Assembly: GCA_947458265.1 (NCBI GenBank)
Contig: CANGYF010000009.1
Coordinates: forward strand, 66,544 to 130,543
Direction of reading: 5' to 3'
DNA length: 64,000 nt
DNA from: Betaproteobacteria bacterium
Lineage (GTDB): Bacteria > Pseudomonadota > Gammaproteobacteria > Burkholderiales > CAIKXV01
Shown: piece after piece, positions 22,318 through 50,909 of the stretch
Layout of the letters: every line of letters starts with the position of its first letter
Position numbering within the stretch: position 1 is the stretch's first letter
Position numbers and translations under genes: made by a program
Notes under the pieces: generated by a model
Told to the model about the DNA's origin: nothing
What the model saw: only the letters and a program-made list of their open reading frames with translations
Databases searched by the model: none

Positions 22318-24723
22318 TCAGCGTCGCGCGTAGTCGAGGAACTTCTCCGGCGTCACCCGGATCGCCGCGCCGGTGGGGCAGGCGCGCACGCAGGCCGGCC
22401 CGCCGCGCAGGTCGGTGCACATGTCGCACTTCACCGCATGCTTGGCCCCATCCTTCGCCGCAGCCAGCGTCTCGCACCCTGGCTCGTCGGTCAGGCCGGT
22501 GAGCAGCCAGGAAAGCAGGCTCGGCCGGCGCCGCTTCTCCACCACCGGCACCAGCTGGATCACGCCGTACGGGCAGTTCTTCTCGCAGTTGCCGCAACCG
22601 ATGCAGGTGTCGAGGATCGTTACCTCGCCTTCGGGGCTGCGCTGGATCGCGTCCGGCGGGCAGTCCTTCATGCAGTGCGGGTTCTCGCAATGGCGGCAGG
22701 ACGTGGGCACGTGAATGCTGGCGAAGGTGGGCCCGGCCTCGCGGTCGAGCCGCGAATTGCCGTCGTGGGTATCCGCGCAGGCCTTCTCGCAGTTGTCGCA
22801 GCGGATGCACAGGCTCTCGTCGATCAGCAGCACGTCGGTGGCCTCGCCGACCCCCTGCTTCATCAGGAAGCTGATCAGGTTGCCCGGGTCCGGCTCGCTC
22901 TCGCGCGCTGCATTGGCGGCGATGCGCTCGAGCACGCGCGCCTCGACGCTCCCACGCAGCGTGTTGTTGCGCATCAGCACTTCGTTGAACGTGCGCGCAT
23001 CCAAGACGATGCTCTCGGTGGACACCGCCGCGCGCACGGTCGCCGATCGCGGCGCGTCGGACAGCAGCGCCATCTCGCCCACGTAGTTCCCGGCAGCGAC
23101 ATACGACAGCACCACCTCGCGCCCGCCCAGGGTGCGCGACACCGTCACCGAGCCGCGGCGGATCAGGTGCAGCCCATCGGCCTTGTCGCCTTCGTGGAAC
23201 AGCACCTCGCCGGCATTGAACACGCTGATGCGCGCATTGGCCACCATCTCGTCGAGGTCGGCCGCGCTGATCCACGGGGCGATATTCGCGCGCACCGCGC
23301 GCTTGAGGAACACCTCGTCGACGCGCCGGCGCACCGACTCCACGCTGCCGATCAGCTTGAGCATCGTGCGCCGCGGCGTCTCGAGCAGCACGCAACCCGG
23401 GCCCGCACGCACCGTGCTCGCGCGCCGGCGGCCCGACACCAGCCCCATCTCGCCGAAGAACTCGCCGGTACGCAGGCGCACGTCGCTGCGCTTGCCTTCC
23501 TTGTCCAGCACCTCGATCAGCACCTCGCCTGCGACGATGACGAAGAACGAATTGGAGTAGTCGCCCTTGGCGAACACCACCGCGCCGGCGGCAGGCTGCT
23601 GCATCTCGCTCTCCAGCAGCACCTCGCGCAGTTGCAGCGTGGACAGCCCGGAGAACACCGGCACGGTGCGCTGGATGCGCGCGAGCGCTCCGGCAACATC
23701 CGTCGCCGCGTGCCAGCCCGCCAGGCGTCGCTTGAGCAGCGGCTCGTCGGCGGGTTCCACCGGAAAGCCCAGGATCGACTCGACCACCTCGTAGCCCTGG
23801 TTCATCGCCTGCTTGATCAGCGGGTAGCCCCCCAGGGCACCGACGATATACAGGCCGGGCACGTTGGACTCGTAGGTCGGAGACAGTTCGGGCACCGCGT
23901 TCGGGTCGTCGTTCGGAAAGGTGACGCCGAAGCTTTCGACGAGGCGGCGCGGAGGCGTTGCGCCCAGCCGGGCGATCACCCGGTCGCAATCGATGCTGTC
24001 CGAGCCGTCGCGCGTCTGCACCCGTACGCGCAGCGCACCGGCATCCACCGCCTCGACCGCCTCGGGCCGGGTGCTGAAGCGACACTCGATCACGCCGTCG
24101 CGGATCGCGCTGGTGACCAGGTCTAGGTTGCCCTGCTTGCAACGCGTGAACTCCTCGTTGCGGTTTAGCAGTACCACCCGGTTGCCATTGGCCAGTGCCA
24201 GCGCGTTCTCGATCGCCGCATCACCGGCGCCGACCACCACGATGGTCTCGCCGACATGGGCGCCGGGATCGTCGAGCTGGTACTGCACGCGCTCGAGGTC
24301 CTCGCCTGGCACGCCCAGCCGCCGCAGGTTGCCCTGCAGGCCGATTGCCAGCACCACATGCTCGGCGTGCACCGGCTCCTGGCCCTCGATGCCGAGCACG
24401 AACGCGCCGCGGCTGCCGGTGATCGAGACCACGGTGGCGCGATGGCGCACCACGACCCCAAGCGTCGCCACCTGCTCATCCCAGGTCTGCAGGATGCGCT
24501 CGCGCTTCCCGGCAGCGAACGACAGGTCGCTGCGCAACGGCAGGATGGCCGGCTCGGCCATCACGTGCTTGCCTTTCTGGTAGCGGAAGATGGTGTGCGA
24601 GAGATGCGACTCGGATTCGAGCAGCACGTGCGACACCCCGCGGTGCGCGGCGCGCGCAGCGCACGACAGGCCGCCCGGGCCAGAGCCGACGACGGCGATC
24701 TTCACCGACACGGGGGGGCTCAC
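22318..24723 (-). CDS. Cytoplasmic fusion protein: FAD/NAD(P)H pyridine-nucleotide-disulfide-type oxidoreductase, two cyclic-nucleotide-binding domains and an NrfC/DmsB-like four-cluster [4Fe-4S] ferredoxin
   Basis: KIAVVGSGPGG and TIVVVGAGDAA are dinucleotide folds. FGEMGLVSGRRRASTVRA and VGEMALLSDAPRSATVRA are cNMP motifs. There are four Cys groups: CIRCDNCEKAC, CRHCENPHCMKDCP, CIGCGNCEKNCP and CDMCTDLRGGPACVRACP. GTG start at 24723 in a GTGA overlap with the upstream stop (alternative GTG at 24711). No signal peptide. Confidence 0.8.
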   Translation of the reverse strand: MSPPVSVKIAVVGSGPGGLSCAARAAHRGVSHVLLESESHLSHTIFRYQKGKHVMAEPAILPLRSDLSFAAGKRERILQTWDEQVATLGVVVRHRATVVSITGSRGAFVLGIEGQEPVHAEHVVLAIGLQGNLRRLGVPGEDLERVQYQLDDPGAHVGETIVVVGAGDAAIENALALANGNRVVLLNRNEEFTRCKQGNLDLVTSAIRDGVIECRFSTRPEAVEAVDAGALRVRVQTRDGSDSIDCDRVIARLGATPPRRLVESFGVTFPNDDPNAVPELSPTYESNVPGLYIVGALGGYPLIKQAMNQGYEVVESILGFPVEPADEPLLKRRLAGWHAATDVAGALARIQRTVPVFSGLSTLQLREVLLESEMQQPAAGAVVFAKGDYSNSFFVIVAGEVLIEVLDKEGKRSDVRLRTGEFFGEMGLVSGRRRASTVRAGPGCVLLETPRRTMLKLIGSVESVRRRVDEVFLKRAVRANIAPWISAADLDEMVANARISVFNAGEVLFHEGDKADGLHLIRRGSVTVSRTLGGREVVLSYVAAGNYVGEMALLSDAPRSATVRAAVSTESIVLDARTFNEVLMRNNTLRGSVEARVLERIAANAARESEPDPGNLISFLMKQGVGEATDVLLIDESLCIRCDNCEKACADTHDGNSRLDREAGPTFASIHVPTSCRHCENPHCMKDCPPDAIQRSPEGEVTILDTCIGCGNCEKNCPYGVIQLVPVVEKRRRPSLLSWLLTGLTDEPGCETLAAAKDGAKHAVKCDMCTDLRGGPACVRACPTGAAIRVTPEKFLDYARR

Positions 24724-26210
24724 TTCGCGCCCCCACGGCGCGCCGCCTGCAGCGTCGCCGCGAACTCGCGCAGCCCGGCCTGGAACGCGACAGGCTGGTA
24801 CTTCTCGTCGTCGGCCACCAGCGCGAGCAGCCGCCTGAGCCCGGGCCCGAGCTGGTCCGGCGCCACCGCCTTCTGCCGCGCAAGGAAGTCGCCAAGACTC
24901 TGCAGCGCGAACACCGCCTGTTCGGCACCGGCGTAGTCGGTGTACTGGCTGGCCAGCCCGTCGGCCACCAGGGCCTCCATCATCGCCTGCAGATCGGCGG
25001 CCGCGAAACGGTGGGCAGCGATGCGCGGCAACAGGCCGTCGATCGCCTCGTACACGGCACGCGCCTGCGCGATCGGGTCGCCGGCGCCGGCGATCGCCTG
25101 GTGCAGGCGGTCGATCTGCTTCGCCAGCGCGGCCCCGGCGTCGGCATCGACGCGACGCGCCACCAGCCGCAGCATCAGCAGGTTCGAGTCGTTCAGTCGC
25201 ACGATCCCGGGGCCGGCCTTGAGCCGGGCCGCGAGGTAGCGGTTGCCGCGCATCGACTGGTGGCACGCATGGCAGTCGAACAGCACCAGTTCCGGGAACA
25301 ACCCGTCGCGACCGCGCTGCGGGTGCAGGAAGATCGCCAGCTGCTCCTGCGAGGCCACCGCCTGGCCGATCGCCCAGGCACGCACGCCGTCCCACGTACC
25401 CTTGCGCTCGCGCCAGTCGGCGTCGATGCGGAAATGCGCCGGTCCGAGCAGGGTGAACGTGTCGAGCTCGAAGCTCATCCTCGGATGCCCGGCCGCCATG
25501 ATCCTGTGGGTGACCAGCTTCTGCGCGTTGCCGAAGTGACAGGACACGCACAGGCGTGCGCGGTCGATGTCGTTGCTGGTCGGGTACAGCCCGTGGGCGA
25601 TGTTGTCGCGGTGGCTCGCGCCGCTCTCGACGTGGCGCCGCAGCCAGCGCTCGGCCGGCCCGTGGCAGGACTCGCAGGTCACGCCCTCGGTGATCGAGAA
25701 CTCCGGTGCGCGGCGCGCCGCCGGCGCGTTGTGCGCGTGGCAGTCCAGGCATACCGCAGCGCGGTGCGCAGGTTCAGTCAGACCCATCCGCTTGACGATC
25801 GCCTGCGACTTGTCGCTGAGCAGCGTGCGATAGGCGCGCGCGTGGCGGTCGCTGCGCTGCCAGACATGGAACTCGGTCTGCAGCACGTTCGAGCCGGGCC
25901 ACGCCTCCGCCGAGCCGTGACACAGGCTGTTCGCGCAACTGGCCACGCCGAGCGTGCGCTCGGCCGCGTACTGGGGGAGCCCGCGGGCCGGGGCGGCGAC
26001 GCCCGGGACGGCTGCCACTGCACGGCCTGGCCCTGGCAGGCCACCCCACAGCGCACCCGCCACGATGCAGCCAACGATAGCCGCGGCGAACGCCAGGGCG
26101 AGCGCTCGGCTGCGGCGCGCGCCGGCAGGCAGCGCCTGTGCGCCGGGCTGTGCCGTGGTAGACGATGGTACGGGGACGGATCGACGCAATATGCGCACGG
26201 GGAACCTCAT
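24720..26210 (-). CDS. Multihaem c-type cytochrome (4 CxxCH plus 1 Cx4CH) with an N-terminal anchor/signal and a helical C-terminal domain
   Basis: Start at 26210 in an ATGA overlap with the upstream stop. Haem motifs: CANSLCH (Cx4CH), CLDCH, CESCH, CVSCH, CHACH. The N-terminal part looks cytochrome c554-like. Confidence 0.8.
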   Translation of the reverse strand: MRFPVRILRRSVPVPSSTTAQPGAQALPAGARRSRALALAFAAAIVGCIVAGALWGGLPGPGRAVAAVPGVAAPARGLPQYAAERTLGVASCANSLCHGSAEAWPGSNVLQTEFHVWQRSDRHARAYRTLLSDKSQAIVKRMGLTEPAHRAAVCLDCHAHNAPAARRAPEFSITEGVTCESCHGPAERWLRRHVESGASHRDNIAHGLYPTSNDIDRARLCVSCHFGNAQKLVTHRIMAAGHPRMSFELDTFTLLGPAHFRIDADWRERKGTWDGVRAWAIGQAVASQEQLAIFLHPQRGRDGLFPELVLFDCHACHQSMRGNRYLAARLKAGPGIVRLNDSNLLMLRLVARRVDADAGAALAKQIDRLHQAIAGAGDPIAQARAVYEAIDGLLPRIAAHRFAAADLQAMMEALVADGLASQYTDYAGAEQAVFALQSLGDFLARQKAVAPDQLGPGLRRLLALVADDEKYQPVAFQAGLREFAATLQAARRGGAK

Positions 26211-29200
26211 CGCCGGAACAGCGTGCGATCGACCTGGTCGCGCACGCGCCACGGATCGCCTTCAGGGCGCAGGTAGAGCCGTCGCTGCTCGGCCAGGTCG
26301 AGCGGGCGCGAGCCGATTCGGCCGAACACCGCCACCTGCCCGCCAGTCTCGTCGACCGCGCGGTCGCGCTCCAGCCCGCGCGACAGGGCAAGCGCAGGAC
26401 TGCGCGTGGGCCGCCAGGCAATCAGCTGCGGCCTGGGCTCCGGGCTGAAGCCGTAGAACTTCGGCTGCGTGTCCGGTGCAGTGAGCTGCACCACCTTCAG
26501 CCCGTTACGCCCGTCCGCGACGTATGCGAACAGCGACGCGTTGGTCGAGCCGACCACCACGTCGCGGGCGTCGTTCAACACACCGCCGGCAGTGAAGCGC
26601 TGGACCACCCGCGGCTGCTCCGGATTCTCGACGTCTACGATCACCAGCCCCTCGCGCCCGGCCGCGACATAGGCGTAGGTGCGCGCGACATACACGCGGT
26701 TGGCCTCTGCCATCGGCACGGTGGCGCCCTCGACGCGCCGCGGGCGCTTCACATCGGTGACATCGAGCACAACCAGCCCATCGCGCGCGGCGACGAACAG
26801 GTAGCGAAACTGCAGCGTCGCCGCGCGTGCGCCTTCGACCGGCACCACGGTGACCAGTTGCGGCTTGAGCGGGTCGTCGAGGTCGACCACCGCGATGCCG
26901 CGCTCGACGGCGACGTAGGCGTAGTGGCCGCCCATCGTGATATGCCGCGCGCCGCGCAGCGCACCGCCCGCGTCCCAGGTAAGTGCCCGGCGCAGGAAGT
27001 TGTTGCGCGGCTCGCCGTCCTGCAGCGTGTCCACGTTGACCACGATCAGGCCCTCGCGCGCATCGGAGATGAACGCGTAGTGGTAGATCGGGTGGAACGG
27101 CTGTTCCTGGTTGACCCGGCGCATCAGGTCGCCCTGGTTCTTGAACGGGGCCACCGGCTGGTTGGTGGGCAGCGCGACGCAGGTCGCCTCCGCCGAGCGC
27201 ACCCGCGTGTCCTGCCCGAGCGGCGAGAACGGCGCGCTGACGATGCGCTGCGAGAAGCCCTTGTTCGCGATCGAGGCGACGTCGTACACCACCATGCCGC
27301 CCGGGCCCTCGGCCGCGTAGAGGTATTCGCCACGCATTTGCAGGCACTCCACCCGGCCGCGGGTGCGCTGGTCGTGCGCCTCGCGCAGGCGCCTGCCTCG
27401 ATTGTCGTGCGCGGCGAACCAGTCCGGGTACGCGTAGCGGTGCAGGTAGCTGCCGATCACCGCCTGCGGCTCCTCCCACTCGGTGACCTGCACCGCCTCG
27501 ACATGGCGCTCGCTGCCGACCCACGCGTTGAAGCCGACGAAGTTCACGAAGCCAGTGCCGTGCAGCAGCAGCTGCGCCATGATGGCGTTGTTGTCGTTGG
27601 CGGCCGACAGGTGGCAATCGGTGCAGGTCTTGGTCTCGGTCTTGCGCTCGGTGTGCGCATAGTGCGGCGCGAACGCCTGGCTGGAGAAGCCGGCGGAGGA
27701 AACGGGCGGCTGCTGGATGTAGATGCGCTCGCGGTTGCTGTTGGTCGAGGACAGCAGCAGCGCCGAGCTGGAGCGGATCGGCACGATCTTGCCCTGCTTG
27801 ACCGGGCCGTGGCGGCCGAGCTGGAACACGTCGTCGCGCACCACCTGCGGGTTATAGGTGGCGTAGTTGCGCGTCGCACCACCCTCGTAGTGGAGGCGAT
27901 CGGTCTTCCAGTTCGCCTCGATCGGCAGGTGGCAGCCCGAGCAACTCGTCGTCCACGAGGTGTGGCAGGTCTGGCAGGCCATCTTGTCGTCGCCGTGCGC
28001 ACGCTCCTGCGCGGGCACGCCCGGCCCCCAGGACTGGCGATAGCTGTCGAAAGCGCCGCGCGCGGTGAGCTTGGACCGCGCCGCCTTCTCGTTGTAATTC
28101 CGGTGCCCGGGGGTGACGGTATCGCGCACCAGCGACATCTCCCACTCCAGCCCGGGGGTGAGGGTGGAGCGCTGGTAGAGCCGGCCGCCACGCCACTCGA
28201 AGCGCGCCCGCCCGTCGGGCACGCGCATCAGCGAGAGGTTGTTGCCGCCCGGGCGCGCCGCCGGGCCCGAGGTGAACAGCGTCGGGTAGCGGTCTGCGGT
28301 GCCGTGGCAGTCGGCGCACTCGATCTCGATCGCCGCCGCGACCTCGCCATAAATGTGGCCGTTGCCGTGGGCGTCCTGGGAGAAGTGGCAGTCCACGCAG
28401 TGCATGCCCACGTCGAGATGGATCGAGGACATGTGTACCGACTTGCTGAACTTCTTGGGGTCGTCGTCGGCGACGATGCGCCCGTCCTTGTCGAGCAGGT
28501 TGCCCCTGCGGTCGCGCTTGAAGACCGCGCGGAAGTTCCAGCCGTGGCCGTGGTAGTCGGCGAACTGGGTGTCCTTCAGCTTCGGGTTGAGGTCCCACAC
28601 CCGCTTCAGGAACTCGAGCGAGCCCCAGTTGCCGAGTACCGCCGCGCCCTCCGGGTTGCGGTCAAGGATGCGGCGGCGTTCGGTGTGCGACGGGTGGCGC
28701 TGCTTCTCGGGCCACATGAACGGCGCATCGGCCTCGTAGTCCCACATCGTGTAGCCGAAGAAACTGTTCACGAACACGTTCGGCTGGTGCATGTGGCACA
28801 CCATGCACTGCGAGGACGGAATCGCGCGGGTGAACTCATGCCGCAGCGGGTGGCCGCTGCGGTCGCGCGGGATCGTCGGATCGGCGCTTACGCTGGTGCC
28901 CGAGTGGCCGTGCTGTGCGTAGGGCCCGGAATGGCGCGGCTCGCGGTCGTTCGCGTAAACGACGTGGCAGCTCGCGCAGCCGGAGGAGCGGTAATCGCCC
29001 GGCTGGTCGTTGCTGCCGAGGAACCAGGTGAACGGGTCGTTCAACCGCGTCTTGGTGATGTTGATCAACGGCACCGCGATGCGCTGGCCGGTACCCGGGC
29101 CGCGCACCGACTGGCGGATATCCGGCCGCCCCGGCTCGTCCAATGTCTGCAGCCGGCCGAGCACGTTGGGCAGTCCGATCTCCGGGAACAGGCTCTGGAT

Positions 29201-29998
29201 CACCCGGCCGCCGCGCTCGAACACCCGGAACACGTCGCCCGGGGGCATCGTCTCCCAGGCCGGCAGCGGAAACAGCTGCGCGAGCACGCCCTTGGCGAGG
29301 AGGAAGGCATCGGGCTTGACCGGGTTGACAATGGTCGCGCCGATGCCGTCGCGGGTATAGGCCTCGCCGAACAAGCCGCGCTTGAACGCGAACTCCGGCG
29401 GCAGGACGCCGTTGTTGTAGGCCGCACCATTCCACAGCATCGCGCCAGTGGCCATCAGGCTGCGCTCGGCCGCCTGGATGATCGGCAGGTGGCAGGCACC
29501 GCAGGCTTCGCGCGCGACCCGGTAGTCCGACGGATTGGTGAAGCGGATGAACTCGGGGCTCTCGCGGTTGAGCAGGGTGTAGCTGCGCTCGGGCGTGGCC
29601 GAGGACGGGTAGTTCCACTCGTTCGCAAAGCGCGGCATCACGTGAGCGCGATCGAGCGCTGCACGGTAGTCGCGCATCCGGTCACCCCGGTAGTCCGAAC
29701 CTGTCGGCCGCTGCACCATCGCATCCCCGCCGTGGCAGTCGGTGCAGCCAAGAGCCACCGCCGGATTGCGATGCATGGTCGCATGGTCGGTGGCGGTGTG
29801 GCAGGACACGCAGCCGGCGGACTTGGAATACGCCTCGGCATGGGACTGCTTCGCCGGCGCGGGCGGCGCGCCGGTGAACATGATGTCCGGAGGGCTCACC
29901 GTCGGACGCGCGGTGAGGCTGCCCGCAGCCTGCGAGGCGGTCACGCCGCCGGCCAGGGCCACCGCGATGCCGACCCACAGCAGCGCCAGGGCAGCCAT
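26207..29998 (-). CDS. Decahaem c-type cytochrome fused to a C-terminal LVIVD-repeat (beta-propeller-like) domain, ~1263 aa, secreted
   Basis: Start MAALALLWVGIAVALAGGVTASQAAG (signal) at 29998. Ten CxxCH motifs: CVSCH, CTDCH, CGACH, CASCH, CMVCH, CVDCH, CADCH, CQTCH, CSGCH, CTDCH. Six LVIVD-like repeats: GMVVYDV, GLIVVNV, GIAVVDL, GLVVLDV, GLVIVDV, GLKVVQL. Confidence 0.85.
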   Translation of the reverse strand: MAALALLWVGIAVALAGGVTASQAAGSLTARPTVSPPDIMFTGAPPAPAKQSHAEAYSKSAGCVSCHTATDHATMHRNPAVALGCTDCHGGDAMVQRPTGSDYRGDRMRDYRAALDRAHVMPRFANEWNYPSSATPERSYTLLNRESPEFIRFTNPSDYRVAREACGACHLPIIQAAERSLMATGAMLWNGAAYNNGVLPPEFAFKRGLFGEAYTRDGIGATIVNPVKPDAFLLAKGVLAQLFPLPAWETMPPGDVFRVFERGGRVIQSLFPEIGLPNVLGRLQTLDEPGRPDIRQSVRGPGTGQRIAVPLINITKTRLNDPFTWFLGSNDQPGDYRSSGCASCHVVYANDREPRHSGPYAQHGHSGTSVSADPTIPRDRSGHPLRHEFTRAIPSSQCMVCHMHQPNVFVNSFFGYTMWDYEADAPFMWPEKQRHPSHTERRRILDRNPEGAAVLGNWGSLEFLKRVWDLNPKLKDTQFADYHGHGWNFRAVFKRDRRGNLLDKDGRIVADDDPKKFSKSVHMSSIHLDVGMHCVDCHFSQDAHGNGHIYGEVAAAIEIECADCHGTADRYPTLFTSGPAARPGGNNLSLMRVPDGRARFEWRGGRLYQRSTLTPGLEWEMSLVRDTVTPGHRNYNEKAARSKLTARGAFDSYRQSWGPGVPAQERAHGDDKMACQTCHTSWTTSCSGCHLPIEANWKTDRLHYEGGATRNYATYNPQVVRDDVFQLGRHGPVKQGKIVPIRSSSALLLSSTNSNRERIYIQQPPVSSAGFSSQAFAPHYAHTERKTETKTCTDCHLSAANDNNAIMAQLLLHGTGFVNFVGFNAWVGSERHVEAVQVTEWEEPQAVIGSYLHRYAYPDWFAAHDNRGRRLREAHDQRTRGRVECLQMRGEYLYAAEGPGGMVVYDVASIANKGFSQRIVSAPFSPLGQDTRVRSAEATCVALPTNQPVAPFKNQGDLMRRVNQEQPFHPIYHYAFISDAREGLIVVNVDTLQDGEPRNNFLRRALTWDAGGALRGARHITMGGHYAYVAVERGIAVVDLDDPLKPQLVTVVPVEGARAATLQFRYLFVAARDGLVVLDVTDVKRPRRVEGATVPMAEANRVYVARTYAYVAAGREGLVIVDVENPEQPRVVQRFTAGGVLNDARDVVVGSTNASLFAYVADGRNGLKVVQLTAPDTQPKFYGFSPEPRPQLIAWRPTRSPALALSRGLERDRAVDETGGQVAVFGRIGSRPLDLAEQRRLYLRPEGDPWRVRDQVDRTLFRR

Positions 29999-30077: not shown

Positions 30078-32819
30078 TCAATAGGTGAGGATAAGGTTGG
30101 CGATGGCCGAGTACTGCCGGCTGTCGAGCGCATTGCCGTAGAGCTCGCGCAGGCCAGCCCCAGGGAACAGAACCGCGAGCGAGACGTTGATCACCACGTT
30201 CTGGATGAACAGCGGCCGGTACTGCACCGCCACCGATGCATCGTGGCCGATCATATTCGAATGCAGGCGCTGGTTACGCAGCGTCGCCAGCGACGACAGG
30301 TTGTCGAAAGCGAGCCGGTTGAGGTTGCCGATCAGCCGCACCTGCGGCGTGAGGTCCACGTCGGCACCGATGCCGATCAGGCGCAGCCCGGGGTTGGTGA
30401 AGTTCGCCTGGCCGTGCTCGCGCGAGGTGCGCAACGAAGCAAGCAGGCCGTTGCGCATCGACAGCGTGGTACCGCCCCCGCCCACCAGCGGCACCGCCTG
30501 GCGGATCCAGTAGCTGGTATCGGCGCCGGCGAACAGCGGGTTCTCCAGCACCGCGTCGAAGCCCTGCGCCTTCGCATCGAAAGGGTTGCGGTCGCCGGAG
30601 GCGTAGAGCGCGCTGGTGCGCAGCCGGATCCAGGAGAAGTCGCGCGAGACTTCGGCCGCGCCGAACCGTGCTTCGACCCGCTCGGGCTGGCCTGAGAGCT
30701 GGCCGCGGCTCACGTTACCGCTCGCCAGGTAGCCCGACAGGGACAGGTTCCAGCGGTTGTAGTGGCCGTCAGCGTTGAGGCCCAGCCAGGTAACGTCGTA
30801 GTCGTAGGGCCGACCCGAGCCGAACACCGCCGGCCGCTCGAGGAAGCCGTTGCCGTTGAAGAAGCGCGGGTTCGATCCCTCGCGGTTGCTGTTGCGCAGG
30901 ATGGTCCCCTGGGTGGTCACCCCAAGCACCGGGAAGTCCTGCCGGTAAAGATTGAACACGAACACGTCATCGTCGCGGGGGCGCTGCAGGATGTCGTTCA
31001 ACCCGCTGTTGGTGTCTTTCTCGAAGCGGCGGAACCACGCGAGGTTGTACTGGTACTGGTTATTGTCGCGGGTGCCGAACAGGCGAACCCCGAACGGCTG
31101 GTCGACGAACAGGAAACCGCGGAAATCGGAGGTGAACGGCTGCACGCCGACGCGCAGGCTGTCGAAGTCGTAGCGCTCGGACACGTCGCGCAGGTGCTTG
31201 TCGAAGAACAACTCCTGGAAGCCGACAAAGCCGTCGTTGCGGTTCGGACCGCTCACCGGGTCGATGTTGGTCAGCCGCACCTCTTCGGTCATCGTGCGGT
31301 TGAAGTTGACCACCGGCACGATCCGGTACTCGTAGTCGGGCGGCCGGAACACGGTGTTGCCCTTGATCAGGCCAAAGTTGAGGATGAGGGTCTGCGCGAA
31401 GGTCGCCTGGCGGCCGTTGCCAAACGAGCCCAGCGCACCGGGGCGCAGGGCGGACTGCGACCCGACCGGCACAGGCAGGCTGCGCGACTCGTAGAGCGAG
31501 TCCGAGATCGCGCTCACGTTGACGAACCACTCTGGCCCGAGCAGGTCCTCGAACACCGGCAGGTCGCCGCGCAGAGGGTTCGGGTTGTACGGATCCCATC
31601 GGTTGTACGGCAGCACGCCCAGTGCCTGCACGATGCGCCAGCGATCACGCACCGGGATCGAATCGCGCGGCGCCGACGGCGCGGGGCGGGCAGCCTGCGT
31701 CGGGTCGATCAGTGCGCGCCGCGGTTCGAGCGCACCGGCACCACCAGTCGGGCGACGCCGCTCGAGCGCGAGCGCCACTGGCGGGAGGTCTGGGCCACCC
31801 TGCGCCGGCGCGACACCGGGGCGCAGTGCCTCAGCCAGCCCGGCGGCGGACGCCGCGTCCGGGGCGGCTGGCTCGAGCGGCCCTCCGAGGTCGACCGGCT
31901 CCAGCGCCTGCCCGCTGCGCCGGCGGTCCACCGCCAGAACGTCCGCAGCGCCCTCGCGCCGCTGCCGTACCCAGGCCTGGTCGCCGTTGGCCCGCTGCAC
32001 GCGATACCAGTCGCCGAGGCGGCGGTCAGCCACCAGCAGCACGCCGATCTCCACCTGCGCCACGACCTCGGCGTCATCGGCCGCACGCGCCTGAAGTGCG
32101 AGCAGCGGCACCATCACCTGCAGCAGGAACGGCGCATCCTCGGGCGCTGGCAACGGTGCCGCCGGCACCGGGGCCGCTGCCGCGGCCACCGCCGAGGTCA
32201 CCCCCAGCGCGCGCGCATCCACCCAGCCGCGGCTGCGCGTCGCCGCCTTGCCTTGGCGCTCGACCTGCACCCAACTGCCTTCGCGCTGCGACGCCTGCAG
32301 CGGCTCGCCCACGACCAACCGGTCCAGTACACGGAAGCGCTCGCCGGCACCGGCGCGCAGGAGCGCCGGCTGCATCGCCTGCACCTCGACAGCCACCGCG
32401 CCAGGCAGCTCCGGGGGCAGCGCGACCAGCGCCGCCTCGCCGGTAGCGGGCGGGCCCGCCGCCGGAGCCTTTGCCCGGAGGCTACCGGGCGCAGGCCCTG
32501 AAGGCGTGGCTGCCACCCGCAAGCCGTCGGCAAACACCCAGCCCTGGGTGGCGCGACCGTCCTGCAGCCGTACCTGTGCCCAGCGGCCCTGCCGCTGCAT
32601 CACCACCGCCGGCACACCAGGCGCCCAGCCCGCGGTCTCGGGAGCGTCCTCCGAAGGTCGCTCGCGCAGCGGGGTCGGGCGCTCCACCCGCACCCGCTCG
32701 CTGGTGCCAGCCGGCGGCTGCGGCTGCGGCTGCGTCCAGGCTGGCGGCGCAACGAGCACCGCCCCGGCCAACGCAGCCGCAGCGGCAAGGCGCACGTGCT
32801 CAGAGGCCGTCGCAGACAT
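30078..32819 (-). CDS. Outer-membrane protein: signal peptide, three SH3b-like repeats and a ~560-aa predicted beta-barrel
   Basis: Start MSATASEHVRLAAAAALAGAVLV at 32819 (alternative GTG at 32795). The SH3b-like segments end in GWVFADGLRV, GWVDARALGV and AWVRQRREG. The C-terminal half has alternating amphipathic segments and ends ...AIANLILTY (terminal aromatic residue). Confidence 0.6.
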   Translation of the reverse strand: MSATASEHVRLAAAAALAGAVLVAPPAWTQPQPQPPAGTSERVRVERPTPLRERPSEDAPETAGWAPGVPAVVMQRQGRWAQVRLQDGRATQGWVFADGLRVAATPSGPAPGSLRAKAPAAGPPATGEAALVALPPELPGAVAVEVQAMQPALLRAGAGERFRVLDRLVVGEPLQASQREGSWVQVERQGKAATRSRGWVDARALGVTSAVAAAAAPVPAAPLPAPEDAPFLLQVMVPLLALQARAADDAEVVAQVEIGVLLVADRRLGDWYRVQRANGDQAWVRQRREGAADVLAVDRRRSGQALEPVDLGGPLEPAAPDAASAAGLAEALRPGVAPAQGGPDLPPVALALERRRPTGGAGALEPRRALIDPTQAARPAPSAPRDSIPVRDRWRIVQALGVLPYNRWDPYNPNPLRGDLPVFEDLLGPEWFVNVSAISDSLYESRSLPVPVGSQSALRPGALGSFGNGRQATFAQTLILNFGLIKGNTVFRPPDYEYRIVPVVNFNRTMTEEVRLTNIDPVSGPNRNDGFVGFQELFFDKHLRDVSERYDFDSLRVGVQPFTSDFRGFLFVDQPFGVRLFGTRDNNQYQYNLAWFRRFEKDTNSGLNDILQRPRDDDVFVFNLYRQDFPVLGVTTQGTILRNSNREGSNPRFFNGNGFLERPAVFGSGRPYDYDVTWLGLNADGHYNRWNLSLSGYLASGNVSRGQLSGQPERVEARFGAAEVSRDFSWIRLRTSALYASGDRNPFDAKAQGFDAVLENPLFAGADTSYWIRQAVPLVGGGGTTLSMRNGLLASLRTSREHGQANFTNPGLRLIGIGADVDLTPQVRLIGNLNRLAFDNLSSLATLRNQRLHSNMIGHDASVAVQYRPLFIQNVVINVSLAVLFPGAGLRELYGNALDSRQYSAIANLILTY

Positions 32820-34695
32820 TGGTGGCACTGGTGTCGAGGAACGGGGCGACCGGACACTGCACGTAGCGCAGGCGGGTGCCGGCGGCGCCGGGGACGATGG
32901 TGTCGGCGCGGATGCCCGCTGGCGCATTACCGATGCCGGTGGCGAGCCGAGTGCCGGCATTGGCCACGCCGAGGAAGGCGATCATGTCGTCCTGGTCCAC
33001 GCCGTCGCCGGAAATGCCGATCGCGCCTACCAGCGCCGCGCCACGGTAGATGGGCACGCTGCCGGGGAAGATCTGGATGCCGTTCTGCGCGCGCGGCAGG
33101 CCGGTACAACCGACCACGGCCGAGCCAGTCGCCGCGGCGACGATGTTGTTGAAAGACAGGTCGAGCTGCAGGCCGACGGTGAACGGACTCCACTGCGCGA
33201 ACGGCTTCGACAGCGGGCCGCTGGCCGAGCCGTTGATCCCATCGGGGAAGAACGGGCGAGCCAGGTTGCCGACCGCGCGGTTGCTGTAGGCGACGCCGTC
33301 GGACAGCGCCGCCGGATTGGCAACGAAGGCTCGCAACTGCGTGACATACGCCCCGATCGGCGAGGCCGGGTTGGGCGCGAGATAGGCGGCATCGGGCAGC
33401 GCCGCAAGGTCGGTCGCGGTGTTCGGATGCGAGAACAGCAGCGCGGTGCGCGCCTTCTGCAGCGACACATCGGTGCCGAATACCGGTGCATCGGCGGTGC
33501 GTACCAGCCCGAGCACCTCGCCGGCGGTGTCCACGATCGAGATCGTCACCTGCGCCGGCGAGCCGAGCGGGCGGCGGATCTGTGCGCGGGTGCGGTTGGC
33601 CACCCTTAGCGCCTCGGCAAGCAGCGCGACCACCTCCGCCTGGGCGAGCAGCCCGTCGGTGCCGGCACGCGGCGCGAAGCGATTGGCGTTGGCGCCGTCG
33701 ACCAGCACATAGGCACCCAGCGCCGCCAGCTCGGGCTGCGTGTCGGGCCGGTAGCCAGAGGCCGGCGTGCCGTAGGCCTCGCCGGCCACGAGCGCGGCGG
33801 CGGCGTAGCCGGCCACCGCCACCAGCGTGCCGGCGGTGCCGTTGATGCTGGCGAAGGCAGGCGCGGCGGCGGGGTTGGACAACAGCGCCTCGGAGTCGAC
33901 GAAGCGCAGGGTGCGCCCGTCAGCGGTGATCCGGTCGGCGCGCCGGTCAGCCGGCGCGGCGAAGCCGCTCGACCCAGCCACCGCGATCAGCTCGTCCAGG
34001 GCGGCGTCGACGTCATTGATGTCGAGGTCGATGCCGTAGGTGCCATCGGCGATCACGCCGATGCCACCGACCACCGTACCGTTCTTGTACAGCGGCAGGC
34101 CGCCGGGATCGGCGGCAAGCCCGAGCGGCGAGCGCTTGGGGCCGATGCTGCCGTCGGCCTGCCGGCGCATCAGGTCGGAGCAGGACAGCTGCGAGAACTG
34201 CACGCCGAACAGCGGGCCGCCCGGCTGGCCGGTCTCGCCCGGGTTGAAGTTCTGCTGCACGATCTGGCCGGCGGTGCGGGTGGTGAACGCATTGCCCTCG
34301 GATGACAGGTAGGCGCCGGTGAGTGCCTTGCTGATCGCAGCGAAGGTCGCCGGCAGCACGTTCACGCCTTCCAGCCCGCCGGAGACGCCACGCCCGCCGG
34401 AGATGTTGAACGTGGCGGCCGCGCCGCCCATGCTGAACACTGCCAGCACGTTGCCCACGCGGTCGACCACGGCGATGGTGGCGCTGGCGCCGCGCGCCTG
34501 CGCCTCGGCCACCGCCTGGCTCAGGATGCGCCCGACCTCGGCAGTGCTCAATGCGGTGGGCGTGGCGAAGCAGCCGCCCGTGCAGCCGCCGGAGGCACCC
34601 GGCGTGCCGCCGTCACCACCGCCACCGCCGCCACAGCCGGCGAGCAGGACAAACAGCAGCACAGACAGCATCCGACGTAGACCGGTCGCACTCAT
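32800..34695 (-). CDS. Lipoprotein with two tandem GlcG/HbpS-like (DUF336, haem-binding/'haem-degrading') domains
   Basis: Start MSATGLRRMLSVLLFVLLAGCGGGGGG (lipobox LAGC) at 34695 in an ATGA overlap with the upstream stop. Domain 1: ATIAVVDRVGNVLAVFSM...GGLPLYKNGTVVGGIGV. Domain 2: ISIVDTAGEVLGLVRT...SLQKARTALLFS...VPIYRGAALVGAIGISGDGVDQDD. Confidence 0.7.
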   Translation of the reverse strand: MSATGLRRMLSVLLFVLLAGCGGGGGGDGGTPGASGGCTGGCFATPTALSTAEVGRILSQAVAEAQARGASATIAVVDRVGNVLAVFSMGGAAATFNISGGRGVSGGLEGVNVLPATFAAISKALTGAYLSSEGNAFTTRTAGQIVQQNFNPGETGQPGGPLFGVQFSQLSCSDLMRRQADGSIGPKRSPLGLAADPGGLPLYKNGTVVGGIGVIADGTYGIDLDINDVDAALDELIAVAGSSGFAAPADRRADRITADGRTLRFVDSEALLSNPAAAPAFASINGTAGTLVAVAGYAAAALVAGEAYGTPASGYRPDTQPELAALGAYVLVDGANANRFAPRAGTDGLLAQAEVVALLAEALRVANRTRAQIRRPLGSPAQVTISIVDTAGEVLGLVRTADAPVFGTDVSLQKARTALLFSHPNTATDLAALPDAAYLAPNPASPIGAYVTQLRAFVANPAALSDGVAYSNRAVGNLARPFFPDGINGSASGPLSKPFAQWSPFTVGLQLDLSFNNIVAAATGSAVVGCTGLPRAQNGIQIFPGSVPIYRGAALVGAIGISGDGVDQDDMIAFLGVANAGTRLATGIGNAPAGIRADTIVPGAAGTRLRYVQCPVAPFLDTSATNVCDGL

Positions 34696-36428
34696 CGGTG
34701 AACTCCCTTCGCGCGCAGCGCCGCCAGCACCTCTGCCGCCGCGCTCTCGCGGGTGCCGTGGAAACCGTGGCACAGCGCGCACTCGGACCGTACCTTGCCC
34801 TTCTCCGCACGCGCGCCCACATGGCACTCGCGGCATTCGCGCACGCCAGGCATCGCCACATCGGCGGCACTGCGCGAGCGCTCGACCTGGTGGCAGTCCC
34901 CGCACTTGGCCGTCGCATGGCTCGCATGCGTGAAGCTTGAGTACGGCATCCACGCCTGCGTGACCCGCACAGGCGCGACGTCCCAGCGCGTGGGCCCGCC
35001 AGCCGGATCGCGCGCGCGCAGCACCTCGTGGCATGTGGAACACACCGCGCGCGTCTCGAACAGCTCGCGCAGCGCCAGCTCGGCGCGGCGGTCGGCCGAG
35101 CCAAGCGACGCAGAACGCTCCAGCGGCGTGGAGTCGGCGCCCGGCCGGGCGCGCGCCGTCGCACGTTCCTCGGTCAGCGTGCCGGCGTAGAGGTGGCGCG
35201 CGTAGTAGTCGCGCAGCATCGGCAGCATCGCCTCGACCCTGCCGTGCGGCACCTGCCGCGTCGCCCCCGGCTCGAAGGTGAGGGCGTGGCAGGACTGGCA
35301 GTGTCGCTCCATGGTGACCGGCGCGAAGCGCCGCCCGTCGCGTTCCGGTTCGTGACAGCTCGCGCACTCGAGGACCTCGCGCCGCTGCGGCCCGCGGATG
35401 CCTTTCGCATCAAGGTGGATCTCGTGGTTGAACTTCAGGTTGGAGCGCTCGCGCGGCGGCGGGACGTCATTCAGGCGCACGCGGCGCACCTGCGGCGGCT
35501 CGCCCGGGTCGAGCAGCGACAGCCGGAACTCCGGATGGTCGCGCGCGAAGTCGACCACCTTGCCCGACTGTGCCTGCCCGGCCGTGCGGCGGATATCGCG
35601 ATGGCAGTCGGCACAGAACGCCTGCGAGAACGGCTGCGCCTGCGGGCCCTTGTGGTCGCGATGGCACTCGGCGCAGCGGGTCGCAGCGAAGCGCTCTCCA
35701 TCCGGGCCGGTGAGTTCAGGGTGCGGCACGTGGTCGCGGATGCCCTTGTGGCACTCGAGGCAGGCGCGGTCACGCACCTGTACGAACGGCAACTCGTGGC
35801 AGGCGCGGCACTCGAAGGCCGCGGCCTGGTGCGCGTTCATGAGCGGGCCCGGGTCCCATGACTGCTGCATGCGATCCGCCCCCTCCCGCAAGCGCTGCGC
35901 GTCGGCGGCCGAGGGCGTACCGACCCAGGCCGCCGCGATCCCGCCGGGGCCGAACAGGTCGGGCGCGGCAGGCAGCAGCAGGAACGGCACCAGGATGCCG
36001 AAGAACATCAGGTAGGACAGCGTCCGGCGCCACGATCTCGCCGGCGGCAGCAGCACCTGCTGCGCCTCGCGGCCAGCGTCGGCGGCCAGCCGCGACGAGG
36101 GCTCGATACGCAGCGCGAGCGCGGCGGCGTCGGGCGGCGGATCGACGGTGATGCGAAACGGCCCGATGTCGATACGGTCGCCGGGCACGATACGCTGCGC
36201 ATTGACCACCCGGCCGTTGACCTCGAGCTCGCCGGAGAGGCTGGCGATCGTCGCCTCGTCCCCCGATACCGTGATGCGCGCATGCTCGAGCAGCACGCGC
36301 GGATCGGGCAGGTGCACCTGGCAGCCGGTACCGCGCCCCACCAACAGCACCGCCCCGGCGACACGGCGCGCGACACGCACCGGCTGGCCGTGTCGTCCGG
36401 GGGTGACGTAGGTGAGCTGGGTCTCCAT
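34692..36428 (-). CDS. FHA-like domain, single TM helix and periplasmic decahaem cytochrome c
   Basis: The N-terminus LLVGRGTGCQVHLPDPRVLLEHARITV...LEVNGRVV...GDRIDIGPFRITV is FHA-like. TM helix: LSYLMFFGILVPFLLLPAAP. Ten CxxCH motifs: CRACH, CLECH, CAECH, CADCH, CASCH, CQSCH, CSTCH, CGDCH, CRECH, CALCH. Confidence 0.8.
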   Translation of the reverse strand: METQLTYVTPGRHGQPVRVARRVAGAVLLVGRGTGCQVHLPDPRVLLEHARITVSGDEATIASLSGELEVNGRVVNAQRIVPGDRIDIGPFRITVDPPPDAAALALRIEPSSRLAADAGREAQQVLLPPARSWRRTLSYLMFFGILVPFLLLPAAPDLFGPGGIAAAWVGTPSAADAQRLREGADRMQQSWDPGPLMNAHQAAAFECRACHELPFVQVRDRACLECHKGIRDHVPHPELTGPDGERFAATRCAECHRDHKGPQAQPFSQAFCADCHRDIRRTAGQAQSGKVVDFARDHPEFRLSLLDPGEPPQVRRVRLNDVPPPRERSNLKFNHEIHLDAKGIRGPQRREVLECASCHEPERDGRRFAPVTMERHCQSCHALTFEPGATRQVPHGRVEAMLPMLRDYYARHLYAGTLTEERATARARPGADSTPLERSASLGSADRRAELALRELFETRAVCSTCHEVLRARDPAGGPTRWDVAPVRVTQAWMPYSSFTHASHATAKCGDCHQVERSRSAADVAMPGVRECRECHVGARAEKGKVRSECALCHGFHGTRESAAAEVLAALRAKGVHR

Positions 36429-36434
36429 CGCCGG

Positions 36435-37289
36435 CTACCAGAAGTAGAACACCGACACCACGTGCGCAATCAGCGCAGCGATGGCACCGAAGGACAGCGG
36501 CACGTGCAACAACAGCCATACCCGCATCGCCGCGCGCAGCTGCAGGTCGCGGCGCGCGCGCGCCAGCAGTTCGCGCTTGCGCACCATCGCCGCGAGCAGC
36601 CGCTCGCCCAGTCGTACCTGCTCTGTCGAGAGCTTCGGCGCGAGTGCGGCGGGCAACCGGGTACAGGCCTCGCGCGTGGGGCAGCGCACGCGCTCGCCGC
36701 GCAGCTCGCGCAGCAGCCCGCCGCCCACGCGCGACTGGCGCGCCCGCATCACCAGCGCGTTGACCTCATCGGGCAGGTTCATCGCCAGCGCCTCGCACTC
36801 GCGGTCGATCTCGCCGACCTTCAGGACGAGCGTGTCGATGGTGTCGTCGCCGAGGTTGGCGGTCACCAGCGCCGGGTAACGCAGGTAGACGAGCACCCCG
36901 TACACGCCGCTCGCCGATACCGCCAGAACCAGTACCCAGGCGAGCGTATGTACGTTCCAGCCCAGTTCGAAGCCGGCGTGCAGGGTGGCAACCACCAGGA
37001 CGGCACCGCCGAGGTACACGTGAGCGGAGGTCCAGCCCTGCACGGTGCCGAGTCTGGAGCCGTAGCGACGCTTGCGGATGCCCAGCAGCATCAGCCACAG
37101 CATCAGCAGCGCGGCGATAGTGCCCAGCGTGTAGCCAAGCCAGGTGCCGCCGTAGTGCTTGGGGTAGCGCGGCGTCGGGTCGATCCAGAGATACGCGACC
37201 GTGGCAACCACGACCAGACACAGCGCCAGCTTCAGATAGCGGGCGCGCCGGTACTCGAGCAGCGACTGGTGGTGGCGCGAGGCGAGCAT
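36435..37289 (-). CDS. Integral membrane protein (5 predicted TM helices) with two H-x13-H helices; putative di-haem b-type transmembrane electron carrier
   Basis: TM3 is SAHVYLGGAVLVVATLHAGF and TM5 is LLLHVPLSFGAIAALIAHVV. Each has two His exactly 13 residues apart. ATG at 37289 is preferred; the longest ORF starts at 37361. The stop lies 6 nt before the FHA-cytochrome start. Confidence 0.6.
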   Translation of the reverse strand: MLASRHHQSLLEYRRARYLKLALCLVVVATVAYLWIDPTPRYPKHYGGTWLGYTLGTIAALLMLWLMLLGIRKRRYGSRLGTVQGWTSAHVYLGGAVLVVATLHAGFELGWNVHTLAWVLVLAVSASGVYGVLVYLRYPALVTANLGDDTIDTLVLKVGEIDRECEALAMNLPDEVNALVMRARQSRVGGGLLRELRGERVRCPTREACTRLPAALAPKLSTEQVRLGERLLAAMVRKRELLARARRDLQLRAAMRVWLLLHVPLSFGAIAALIAHVVSVFYFW

Positions 37290-37412
37290 TTTTCGCACGG
37301 GTGACCGCTTCGACGGCGACGCGGCTGCAACCCAGCATGACGACATCAAGCGGACGATCATACTCGATCAATATGACAGGCCAGAAGGCCGCGCGAAGGC
37401 CCCCGAGGGCGC

Positions 37413-38225: not shown

Positions 38226-38240
38226 CCCTCGCCCGGCGCT

Positions 38241-38747
38241 TCAGCGGGTTGCAGCGGAGCGCACCAGCACCGCCTCGATGCGCACGGCGCCCCCGGGCAG
38301 GCGCTCGACCCGCGCCTGCAGGAGCGCCACGCGCTGCTCACGCAGCGCCTGCACCAGCATCAGCCAGTCGCGGAAGACGGCCGCGTCGGCAACCAGCCGC
38401 ACGCGATCCGGCGTCGCCCGGTCACCCTGCACCGCAGCCCGCGCGAGTCCAGCCGCCTGCGCCTGCCGCTGCACCAGCGCCGCGAGGTCGTCCGCGCTGG
38501 CGGGCACGACGCGCGCACGCAGGCGCGCGACCTCGTCGGCGTGCGCGTCCACCGTGGTGGCGGCGGCGCGCAGCTCCGGCAGACGGGCCTCCAGCCGCCC
38601 CCGCTCGCGCTCGGCATCCAGGGCCCATGCACCATAGACGATCAGCGCGGCGGCCGCGGCAAGCGCGAGCAGCCACGGTCGCCGCCATCCCGGGCGCCCC
38701 GGTGCGGCCGCCGGCCGTACTGCAGCGGTGCTCGTACGCGCGCTCAC
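38241..38747 (-). CDS. gspM: Type II secretion system protein M
   Basis: GTG start at 38747 in a GTGA overlap with the gspL stop. 168 aa with a single TM helix (WLLALAAAAALIVYGAWAL) and then a coiled region. Position between gspL and gspN supports the call. Confidence 0.7.
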   Translation of the reverse strand: MSARTSTAAVRPAAAPGRPGWRRPWLLALAAAAALIVYGAWALDAERERGRLEARLPELRAAATTVDAHADEVARLRARVVPASADDLAALVQRQAQAAGLARAAVQGDRATPDRVRLVADAAVFRDWLMLVQALREQRVALLQARVERLPGGAVRIEAVLVRSAATR

Positions 38748-42332: not shown

Positions 42333-42396
42333 GCCGCCGCAATCGTGGCCGCAACCGTGGCCGAACTCGTGACCGAACTCGGGGCGCAGGCGCCGC

Positions 42397-45812: not shown

Positions 45813-45819
45813 CTGCGCC

Positions 45820-47319: not shown

Positions 47320-47326
47320 CGCGGCC

Positions 47327-50893: not shown

Positions 50894-50909
50894 GGTATGT
50901 GTCTCCTGG

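Follow-up and report, generated by a model that had tools for sequence, protein, structure and literature searches.

Fusion of a decahaem c-type cytochrome with an LVIVD beta-propeller and its conserved seven-gene operon in Proteobacteria

The 64-kb stretch of betaproteobacterial DNA analysed here (contig CANGYF010000009.1; called the window, to which all positions refer as a whole) encodes on its minus strand a 1263-residue protein, in which a decahaem c-type cytochrome is fused to an LVIVD beta-propeller. Such a fusion had been proposed by an earlier reading of the letters without any database search (the sequence-only reading), and we confirmed it in every particular that was observed. The gene forms part of an operon of seven genes. 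The identity of these genes, their domain content, the fusion, its conservation, the structure of the operon and the fold of an outer-membrane barrel encoded directly upstream are established by our data. This conserved seven-gene context lay outside the sequence-only reading and it changes the picture: the chain appears to start at a cytoplasmic protein that combines NAD(P)H, flavin adenine dinucleotide (FAD) and iron-sulfur (Fe-S) domains. We tentatively propose that the operon encodes a conserved, NAD(P)H-linked electron-transfer chain across the envelope, in which the decahaem-LVIVD protein forms the outermost multihaem subunit and works at the outer membrane. To this proposal we assign slightly less than an even chance. 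Literature and full-text searches turned up no published description of a decahaem-LVIVD fusion. The family is large, highly conserved and found in common aerobic Proteobacteria of soil, freshwater and marine habitats, and the sources call its members hypothetical or 'multiheme c-type cytochrome'.

The decahaem-LVIVD fusion protein

The gene of the 1263-residue protein and the parts of its product are as follows:

26207..29998 (stop codon counted), minus strand: gene of the decahaem c-type cytochrome with LVIVD beta-propeller, 1263 residues (open reading frame, translation, Pfam)
29927..29998, minus strand: Sec-type signal peptide, residues about 1-24 (MAALALLWVGIAVALAGGVTASQA), no lipobox (sequence; cleavage site judged by eye)
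27530..29926, minus strand: multihaem region, residues about 25-823, ten CxxCH motifs with long, highly conserved inserts between the haems (motifs, alignment)
26384..27529, minus strand: beta-propeller, residues about 824-1205, six LVIVD blades and a probable seventh closing blade (AlphaFold2, Foldseek, repeat alignment)
26207..26383, minus strand: conserved C-terminal tail, residues about 1206-1263 (alignment; low model confidence or beyond the modelled range)

The reading frame starts with an ATG at position 29998 and ends with a stop codon at 26207-26209. The sequence-only reading had placed a gene for about 1263 residues at 26207-29998, and both the open reading frame and independent gene calls agree with it. 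The GC content at the third codon positions of this frame (GC3) is 0.90, as expected of a real gene in a genome with 69% GC. A 1307-residue open reading frame on the plus strand over the same bases is its antisense shadow. The same 1263-residue product has been called independently in other assemblies, and an identical sequence was found in NCBI, Logan and ENA on contigs of up to 720 kb. A misassembled chimera, which had been raised as a concern, is excluded by the recurrence of the identical protein in these independent assemblies.

The signals of the 120 closest homologues are of the MRxL...AxA type. A conserved lipobox cysteine was found neither in the protein itself nor among these homologues. 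Judged from its hydrophobic N-terminus, the protein is exported by Sec and carries no lipid anchor, as the sequence-only reading had stated when it described a Sec-type signal without a lipobox.

Ten CxxCH motifs are located at residues 63, 85, 166, 341, 398, 534, 561, 675, 686 and 792. In shuffled versions of the protein we counted a mean of 0.013 such motifs (maximum 1), and 20 of the 22 cysteines belong to CxxCH motifs. All ten motifs are invariant in an alignment of 66 homologues. They span about 770 residues, which corresponds to about 77 residues per haem, and thus the ten haems with long inserts over about 750 residues that had been described were all recovered. By its ten conserved CxxCH motifs and its Sec-type signal, the protein is classified as a multihaem c-type cytochrome. 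The alignment also contains 14 invariant histidines outside the motifs, which is enough for ten bis-His haems.

The relationships of the haem half are less clear-cut in the databases. Pfam matches to c3/c7 cytochromes were weak, and no PDB match was obtained at E<=10, neither with the single sequence nor with a profile of 66 sequences. We detected no relationship to decahaem cytochromes of the MtrA/MtrC type, in line with the earlier statement that the arrangement of the haems is unlike the compact MtrA and MtrC. These searches suggest that the haem domain is without a characterised relative. We also considered whether the protein is a paralogue of the second decahaem cytochrome of the operon, which carries an FHA domain. 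This possibility was rejected; BLASTP aligned the two proteins at the haem motifs only.

For the C-terminal half, the Pfam profile LVIVD (PF08309) scored 72.3 bits (E=1.9e-20, cut-off 20.2) and three stretches passed the cut-off on their own. This is the profile search that the sequence-only reading had recommended as a check. The six repeats it had quoted were all located, with motifs at residues 901, 983, 1034, 1074, 1117 and 1166, compared with a mean of 0.12 in shuffles. The units are about 42 residues long, contain the strand motif G-hydrophobic-x-V-V-D-V and align with each other as YAYVA..G.GL.VVDV..P..P. When residues 31-1230 were modelled by AlphaFold2 with the 66 homologues, the C-terminal half came out as a propeller, as had been expected. 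The propeller region reached a predicted local distance difference test score (pLDDT) of about 90 and is built of six units in succession, each with four strands and a single LVIVD motif. From the secondary-structure string it can be seen that two further strands precede the six units and that two follow them. The N-terminal and the C-terminal strand pair probably close a seventh blade, a count read from this string and not from the coordinates. A Foldseek search of this region against the PDB returned only beta-propellers (AztD 6cmk with E=1e-8, BamB, WD40, LRP6). Two invariant cysteines outside the CxxCH motifs, Cys885 and Cys940, lie within the propeller and may form a disulfide.

The distribution of the protein family indicates that this architecture is widespread. 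More than 7,700 clusters of homologues (at 90% identity) came out of a word-indexed search, and at least 571 copies were confirmed when each species was represented by a single genome. The best 120 homologues are all full length, share 69-99% identity with our protein and are named 'hypothetical protein' if they are named at all. Across Beta-, Gamma- and Alphaproteobacteria the fusion is kept at 63-77% identity over more than 1200 residues, and the copies from the species scan share 63-73% over about 1200 residues. Together with the invariant haem motifs, such a degree of identity would suit an enzyme or a tightly assembled complex better than a simple wire. Cultured hosts include Limnobacter alexandrii, Parahaliea maris, P. 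mediterranea, Steroidobacter agaridevorans and a Fontimonas strain; further hosts were found in Usitatibacter, Halieaceae and Sphingobium. The strains include Sphingobium herbicidovorans MH (gene B6S01_RS18425), Limnobacter alexandrii LZ-4 and Steroidobacter agaridevorans SA29-B. Since several of the hosts are cultured isolates, the function of the protein is directly testable. The copy on the Sphingobium megaplasmid is 59% identical to ours and bears the RefSeq name 'multiheme c-type cytochrome'.

An exhaustive search of representatives at 50% identity detected full-length relatives down to about 41% identity. These distant relatives contain 9-10 haem motifs and LVIVD repeats, and a few of them carry lipoprotein-type signals. 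Giant multi-LVIVD proteins also occur among the distant matches. One divergent homologue of 1648 residues (P0132) has 28 CxxCH motifs, with an 18-haem N-terminal extension of the c7/c3 type preceding the same ten-haem-plus-LVIVD core. The position of these 18 additional haems fits electron entry at the N-terminal end. Three apparent cytochrome-only relatives (P0166, P0209, P0220) were set aside; they contain few CxxCH motifs, have arginine-rich ends, in one case start porin-like and look like frameshifted or merged gene calls. A comparison of fused with separate genes had been suggested by the sequence-only reading, and none of the relatives found convincingly encodes the two halves in separate genes. 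Phylogenetically, the decahaem-LVIVD fusion is thus old and fixed, as judged from the homologues collected here.

The seven-gene operon

The fusion gene is accompanied by six further genes of the same strand, which are given here in the direction of transcription:

36435..37361, minus strand: 308-residue membrane protein, four or five hydrophobic helices (transmembrane segments, orthologue alignment)
34692..36428, minus strand: 578-residue protein with a cytoplasmic FHA domain, one transmembrane helix (135-160) and a periplasmic decahaem cytochrome (Pfam, motifs)
32800..34698, minus strand: 632-residue lipoprotein (LLAGC lipobox) with four HbpS-like/GlcG stretches (Pfam PF03928, E=5.9e-23)
30078..32819, minus strand: 913-residue protein with a signal peptide, periplasmic SH3 domains and a C-terminal 18-strand outer-membrane barrel (about 30078-31529), ending ...NLILTY (Pfam, AlphaFold2)
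24720..26210, minus strand: c554-like cytochrome with four CxxCH and one CxxxxCH and a helical C-terminal half (Pfam Cytochrome_C554, E=5e-10)
22318..24735, minus strand: oxidoreductase of about 805 residues with FAD/NAD(P)H, two cyclic-nucleotide-binding and ferredoxin domains (Pfam, NCBIfam)

To quantify the conservation of this neighbourhood, the proteins encoded around the fusion gene in the window were compared against 80 related loci. The gene order is shared by nearly all of them. Both in the window and in the relatives, start and stop codons of the operon genes overlap, which implies co-translation. A scan of the operon for promoters and terminators yielded nothing above chance.

The barrel gene is located directly upstream of the fusion gene and is its neighbour in 78 of the 80 loci. 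A 913-residue protein with 100% identity to its product is on record, and Pfam assigned SH3_3/SH3_4 domains to the N-terminal part. The barrel domain was modelled with 18 long strands and a predicted template modelling score of 0.74, and the top Foldseek match was AlgE (3rbh, E=4.5e-18). Two conserved segments of this protein were modelled at low confidence: a very conserved one just before the barrel (...PVRDRWRIV..LG.LPY...DPYNPN.LKGDLP...) and a loop of about 50 residues (...GADTSYWIRQAVPL.GGGG...SREHGQ.NFTNPG...). Either segment could act as a plug, as a constriction or in partner binding. Homologues differ in how many N-terminal SH3 domains they have, and some lack them completely.

On the downstream side, the ATG of the c554-like gene overlaps the stop codon of the fusion gene (ATGA). 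The identical 4-nucleotide overlap was observed in relatives, and the gene is present in 68 of the 80 loci. An assignment of the c554-like protein as a lipoprotein was dismissed; the window copy contains IVGC, and something similar was seen in only 2 of 68 orthologues. The gene of the HbpS-like lipoprotein is conserved in 68 of the 80 loci as well. Its lipobox was recognised by a crude pattern in 36 of 59 orthologues, and the Sphingobium homologue is named 'heme-binding protein' in RefSeq.

The 578-residue protein combines a Pfam FHA match (E=1.4e-6) with c7/c3 matches, ten CxxCH motifs and one transmembrane segment. Ten motifs were counted in 53 of 54 orthologues. In the oxidoreductase, the FAD/NAD(P)H domain resembles YpdA and thioredoxin reductase (NCBIfam YpdA, 124.7 bits), and additional matches were CRP-like and HydN/AegA-like. 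The ferredoxin domain is of the HydN/DmsB type and contains four cysteine motifs; no transmembrane segment and no signal were found in this protein. Its gene is located at one or the other end of the cluster in 58 of the 80 loci, and in other lineages it stands at the front. The 1144-residue open reading frame listed for this frame overextends, and the conserved part begins near position 24735.

For the 308-residue membrane protein, an alignment of 49 orthologues contains five invariant histidines (114, 128, 138, 286, 300). Two pairs of them, His114/His128 and His286/His300, are each separated by 14 residues inside one hydrophobic helix. This spacing is a cytochrome b pattern, classical for two b-haems stacked across a membrane, and it is close to that of NOX-type proteins, in which the histidine pairs lie about 13-14 residues apart on two helices. 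The spacing of the histidines suggests that this protein is a candidate for a previously unrecognised two-haem cytochrome b.

On the Sphingobium megaplasmid, the cluster is organised as two convergent transcription units. The inner three genes (cyclic-nucleotide-binding protein, transmembrane protein, c3 cytochrome) form one unit and the outer four (cytochrome, haem-binding protein, barrel and decahaem-LVIVD protein) form the other. This separation indicates that the system is modular. A search with the FHA-decahaem protein for Ptd-like clusters on plasmids (the ptd operon is described below) found only the Sphingomonadaceae copies of the same system. In S. herbicidovorans, plasmid pMSHV (NZ_CP020539.1) encodes directly upstream of the outer module a hypothetical protein of more than 2000 residues that is cut by the end of the locus (1-5674); two metallophosphoesterase genes and a secretion gene of the ShlB/FhaC type are found nearby. 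Some loci add genes for a PP2C phosphatase, a Ser/Thr kinase, FHA or double-FHA proteins and cytochrome maturation beside the cluster. The kinase, phosphatase and FHA neighbours are consistent with phospho-regulation through the FHA domain and hint at such a mechanism.

Electron path and location of the fusion protein

The b-haems, the order of the carriers, the direction of flow, the location of the decahaem-LVIVD protein and its substrate or acceptor are predicted here from sequence and genomic context. The cytoplasmic flavo-iron-sulfur protein would oxidise NAD(P)H, gated by its two cyclic-nucleotide-binding domains, and the electrons would pass four [4Fe-4S] clusters to the 308-residue membrane protein, whose two b-type haems would lead them across the inner membrane. 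In the periplasm, the FHA-anchored decahaem cytochrome would collect the electrons and the c554-like cytochrome would relay them to the ten-haem chain of the decahaem-LVIVD protein. The latter, soluble after Sec export, would work at the inner face of the 18-strand barrel or form a complex with it and with the HbpS-like lipoprotein. Where the haem chain ends, its propeller may serve for docking or for substrate binding, and the acceptor would either enter via the barrel or be met at the barrel mouth. Outward flow from NAD(P)H would be downhill with respect to both redox and membrane potential, which would explain the cyclic-nucleotide-binding and FHA regulatory domains. An outermost position in an electron-transfer chain had already been suggested for the fusion protein, and it is plausible since the operon encodes an outer-membrane barrel.

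How far out the protein is located depends on the barrel. The MtrB sheath of the Mtr system consists of 26 strands. The barrel of our operon was modelled with 18 strands and is AlgE-like, as compared with a sheath width of about 20-28 strands. It would therefore probably be too narrow to sheath a decahaem cytochrome in the manner of MtrB, and we lean towards a protein that stays periplasmic and a barrel that serves as a specific channel or contact point. According to the barrel model, a periplasmic or inner-leaflet protein with a substrate channel would fit the AlgE-like fold at least as well as surface exposure.

The sequence-only reading had arrived at another model, in which the protein is secreted by the type II secretion system (T2SS) and acts at the cell surface as an MtrC-like terminal reductase that touches minerals or other insoluble acceptors via its propeller. 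We consider this model rather unlikely, although a number of observations speak for it. MtrC requires the T2SS, and in the window T2SS genes abut the operon. The minus strand carries gspN/M/L/J/I (37413-42925) and the plus strand gspD/E/F (42867-48517), and the full cluster, including pseudopilin genes, occupies 37413-48517 on both strands with an unusually high GC content (0.72-0.76). The end of gspN is only 51 nucleotides upstream of the first cytochrome-operon gene. Thus, the adjacency that the sequence-only reading had reported is real. The functional link it had drawn from this adjacency is not supported: among the 80 related loci and three annotated relatives, not one has T2SS genes beside the cluster. 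In close relatives (70-77% identity), the flanking genes are relA and thrS-infC-pheST, or else ccm genes. We therefore regard the adjacency as a trait of this genome that carries little weight for secretion.

Other observations on a surface location also point in both directions. LVIVD repeats were first described in cell-surface proteins (PMC2447325). The giant multi-LVIVD proteins among the distant matches, the lipoprotein-type signals of some distant homologues and the co-conservation of the outer-membrane barrel with the fusion protein would be compatible with exposure, and in Desulfovibrio ferrophilus separate beta-propeller genes accompany extracellular cytochromes. In that organism DFE_0451, DFE_0452 and DFE_0463 are six- or seven-bladed propellers that occur with multihaem cytochromes in envelope redox clusters, as here. 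The two cases are likened by description only, and the Desulfovibrio propellers are encoded by separate genes and several of them are lipoproteins, whereas the propeller of our protein is covalently fused and of the LVIVD type. On the other side of the balance, our protein lacks a lipid anchor, an AlgE-like barrel of 18 strands would probably be too narrow for an MtrA-like decahaem cytochrome, and the hosts are mostly aerobic heterotrophs that are not known as metal respirers.

MtrCAB of Shewanella and its relatives can be compared directly. Both systems have a ten-haem protein, both combine an outer-membrane barrel and another decahaem cytochrome in one operon, and a possible role in electron transfer across the envelope is common to them. 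T2SS genes next to the operon are a feature of this window, but this linkage is not conserved in the relatives. The MtrC/OmcA models (TIGR03507, PF22113) were absent from the matches of our protein at E<=1, and a faint precomputed PF22113 match occurs in a few homologues. The MtrA/DmsE model (TIGR03508), which describes a compact protein of about 300 residues, gave no match either. Our protein differs from the Mtr cytochromes by about 77 residues per haem with long inserts and by the lack of a lipobox, and the barrel differs by 18 versus 26 strands. Moreover, the apparent electron source is a cytoplasmic NAD(P)H flavoprotein, whereas MtrCAB is fed by a quinol dehydrogenase. The operon thus points to an envelope-spanning route that starts from NAD(P)H and not from quinol, and that involves unusual regulatory domains.

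Several findings weigh against the path from NAD(P)H to a fusion protein at the outer membrane that we favour. The 308-residue membrane protein had no Pfam or NCBIfam match, including the profiles of ferric reductases and cytochrome b. The FHA region of the FHA-decahaem protein is poorly conserved in the alignment, too poorly to judge the residues for phosphothreonine binding. The haem half of the fusion protein was modelled unreliably, with pLDDT values mostly below 50 (mean 56), so that neither the haem packing, which the sequence-only reading had hoped to see in an AlphaFold model, nor an open-coordination catalytic haem could be read. The propeller contains a single invariant histidine and no obvious metal-site cluster, which leaves a catalytic role of this domain unsupported. 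In the relatives, a T2SS encoded elsewhere in the genome could still secrete the protein to the surface, and none of the data fixes the direction of electron flow.

Related systems and remaining genes of the window

Two recent preprints each caught one piece of this machinery, and neither of them mentions the decahaem-LVIVD fusion. The first describes the ptdABCDEFG operon of marine Alphaproteobacteria and other bacteria from oxygen-deficient zones, the function of which was called 'completely unknown' in 2024 (bioRxiv 10.1101/2023.11.21.568154). Its components are an FAD/NAD(P)-binding oxidoreductase, a cyclic-nucleotide-binding 4Fe-4S protein, a ferric-reductase-like membrane protein, a decahaem cytochrome, a tetrahaem cytochrome and a porin (bioRxiv 10.1101/2023.11.21.568154). 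When likened by the component types given in that description, ptd appears to be the closest described system. By domain content, all six component types are shared with our cluster. The FAD protein and the cyclic-nucleotide-binding Fe-S protein are two proteins in ptd but are fused into one here, and the decahaem cytochrome carries an FHA domain here, unlike the ptd decahaem. An HbpS-like lipoprotein is extra in our cluster and the gene order differs. The most important difference concerns the multihaem protein next to the porin, which is a pentahaem NrfA-like protein with a beta-sandwich in ptd and the decahaem-LVIVD propeller protein in our case. We found no gene for a pentahaem NrfA-like protein in the cluster, and our protein had no Cytochrom_C552/NrfA match. 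Thus, the ptd operon represents the inner module combined with a different terminal cytochrome.

This parallel leads to a second alternative, according to which the decahaem-LVIVD protein is a periplasmic multihaem enzyme. Here, one active-site haem would convert a small soluble substrate that enters through the barrel (an oxyanion of nitrogen, sulfur, selenium or a halogen, or else a reactive species) with NAD(P)H-derived electrons. Such an enzyme would be the counterpart of the NrfA-like PtdA, and in the ptd operon the porin adjoins a pentahaem protein assigned to the NrfA COG. Our protein leaves the cytoplasm via Sec and is soluble, the inserts between its haems are very highly conserved, and its value of residues per haem falls into the range of enzyme-type multihaem proteins. 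The AlgE-like barrel also has a highly conserved internal loop, as is typical of specific channels. In contrast, all ten motifs are of the standard CxxCH type, with no CxxCK or other known active-site signature, the 14 invariant histidines could supply bis-His ligation to all ten haems, no match to the NrfA, HAO, OTR or MccA profiles was obtained and no substrate can be named. Considering both sides, we regard an enzymatic function of this kind as quite unlikely.

The second preprint reports on a gene cluster of Ferrigenium straubiae that encodes an FHA-nonahaem cytochrome, a protein with five transmembrane helices and a [4Fe-4S] protein; the authors called it novel and of unknown function (bioRxiv 10.64898/2026.01.22.701106). 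According to them, no multihaem cytochrome with an FHA domain had been described before (bioRxiv 10.64898/2026.01.22.701106). This three-gene inner module has the same architecture as ours: a cytoplasmic FHA domain followed by a transmembrane helix and a periplasmic multihaem part, a polytopic membrane protein and a cytosolic Fe-S protein. It lacks the fusion protein, the barrel, the HbpS-like lipoprotein and the c554-like cytochrome, and its FHA cytochrome has nine haems instead of ten. For the membrane protein the authors found no redox motif, whereas its counterpart in our operon contains the invariant pattern of two histidine pairs.

With this module a third alternative comes into play. 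The decahaem-LVIVD protein might oxidise an external or periplasmic donor and feed the electrons inwards to the membrane b-haems or the quinone pool, or to the cytoplasmic Fe-S protein, as in electron uptake or lithotrophy. Limnobacter, a genus that includes thiosulfate oxidisers, carries the cluster. Ferrigenium, in which the inner module occurs, is an Fe(II) oxidiser, and the authors suggested Fe(II) oxidation linked to quinone reduction. However, the reduction of NAD(P)+ with donors of the Fe(II) type would be uphill and the operon contains no energy-coupling subunit, the hosts are mostly heterotrophs, and a flavo-iron-sulfur protein with NAD(P)H-type folds would rather suggest an electron source than a sink. 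An inward chain is the most improbable explanation that we discuss here.

Among the named families, ExtM (GSU2935) of the Geobacter cluster extHIJKLMNOPQS was the best-scoring one (NCBIfam NF040943). The score of 72.4 bits was contributed by three short stretches and compares with a cut-off of 800. The ExtM cluster likewise encodes a porin and a b-type cytochrome, but ExtM itself has 12 haems in about 600 residues, has no propeller and is uncharacterised. On the basis of these comparisons, the decahaem-LVIVD protein would best be filed with the porin-cytochrome or Ptd-like kind, and it falls outside the MtrC/OmcA, MtrA/DmsE and ExtM families.

By analogy, the outward path that we prefer resembles the export logic of NOX enzymes, ferric reductases and MsrQ, in which electrons move from cytoplasmic NAD(P)H via flavin and two b-haems to an outside acceptor. 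In our operon no profile match to the ferric-reductase family was found, and the path would include Fe-S clusters and continue over some 25 c-type haems. In its most extended form, the operon would transfer the logic of NADPH oxidases and ferric reductases to the Gram-negative envelope under the control of cyclic nucleotides and phosphorylation. Cytoplasmic NAD(P)H would be spent to drive electrons over the two b-haems and about 25 c-haems to the decahaem-LVIVD protein at the outer membrane, which would reduce an extracellular acceptor such as Fe(III), Mn oxides, humics or O2, the last of these to superoxide. We judge this extended version to be improbable. If true, it would explain at the molecular level how the many aerobic Proteobacteria of soil and sea that carry the cluster, but no Mtr-type system, could reduce extracellular acceptors.

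No tRNA genes were found anywhere in the window. The region from 48500 to 64000 has a lower GC content (0.62-0.67) and was considered as a foreign island. This assignment was rejected, and the region contains ribosomal protein, SecY and RpoA operons instead, with genes for S4, RpoA, SecY, S5, L6, L5, L14, S3, L2 and L3.

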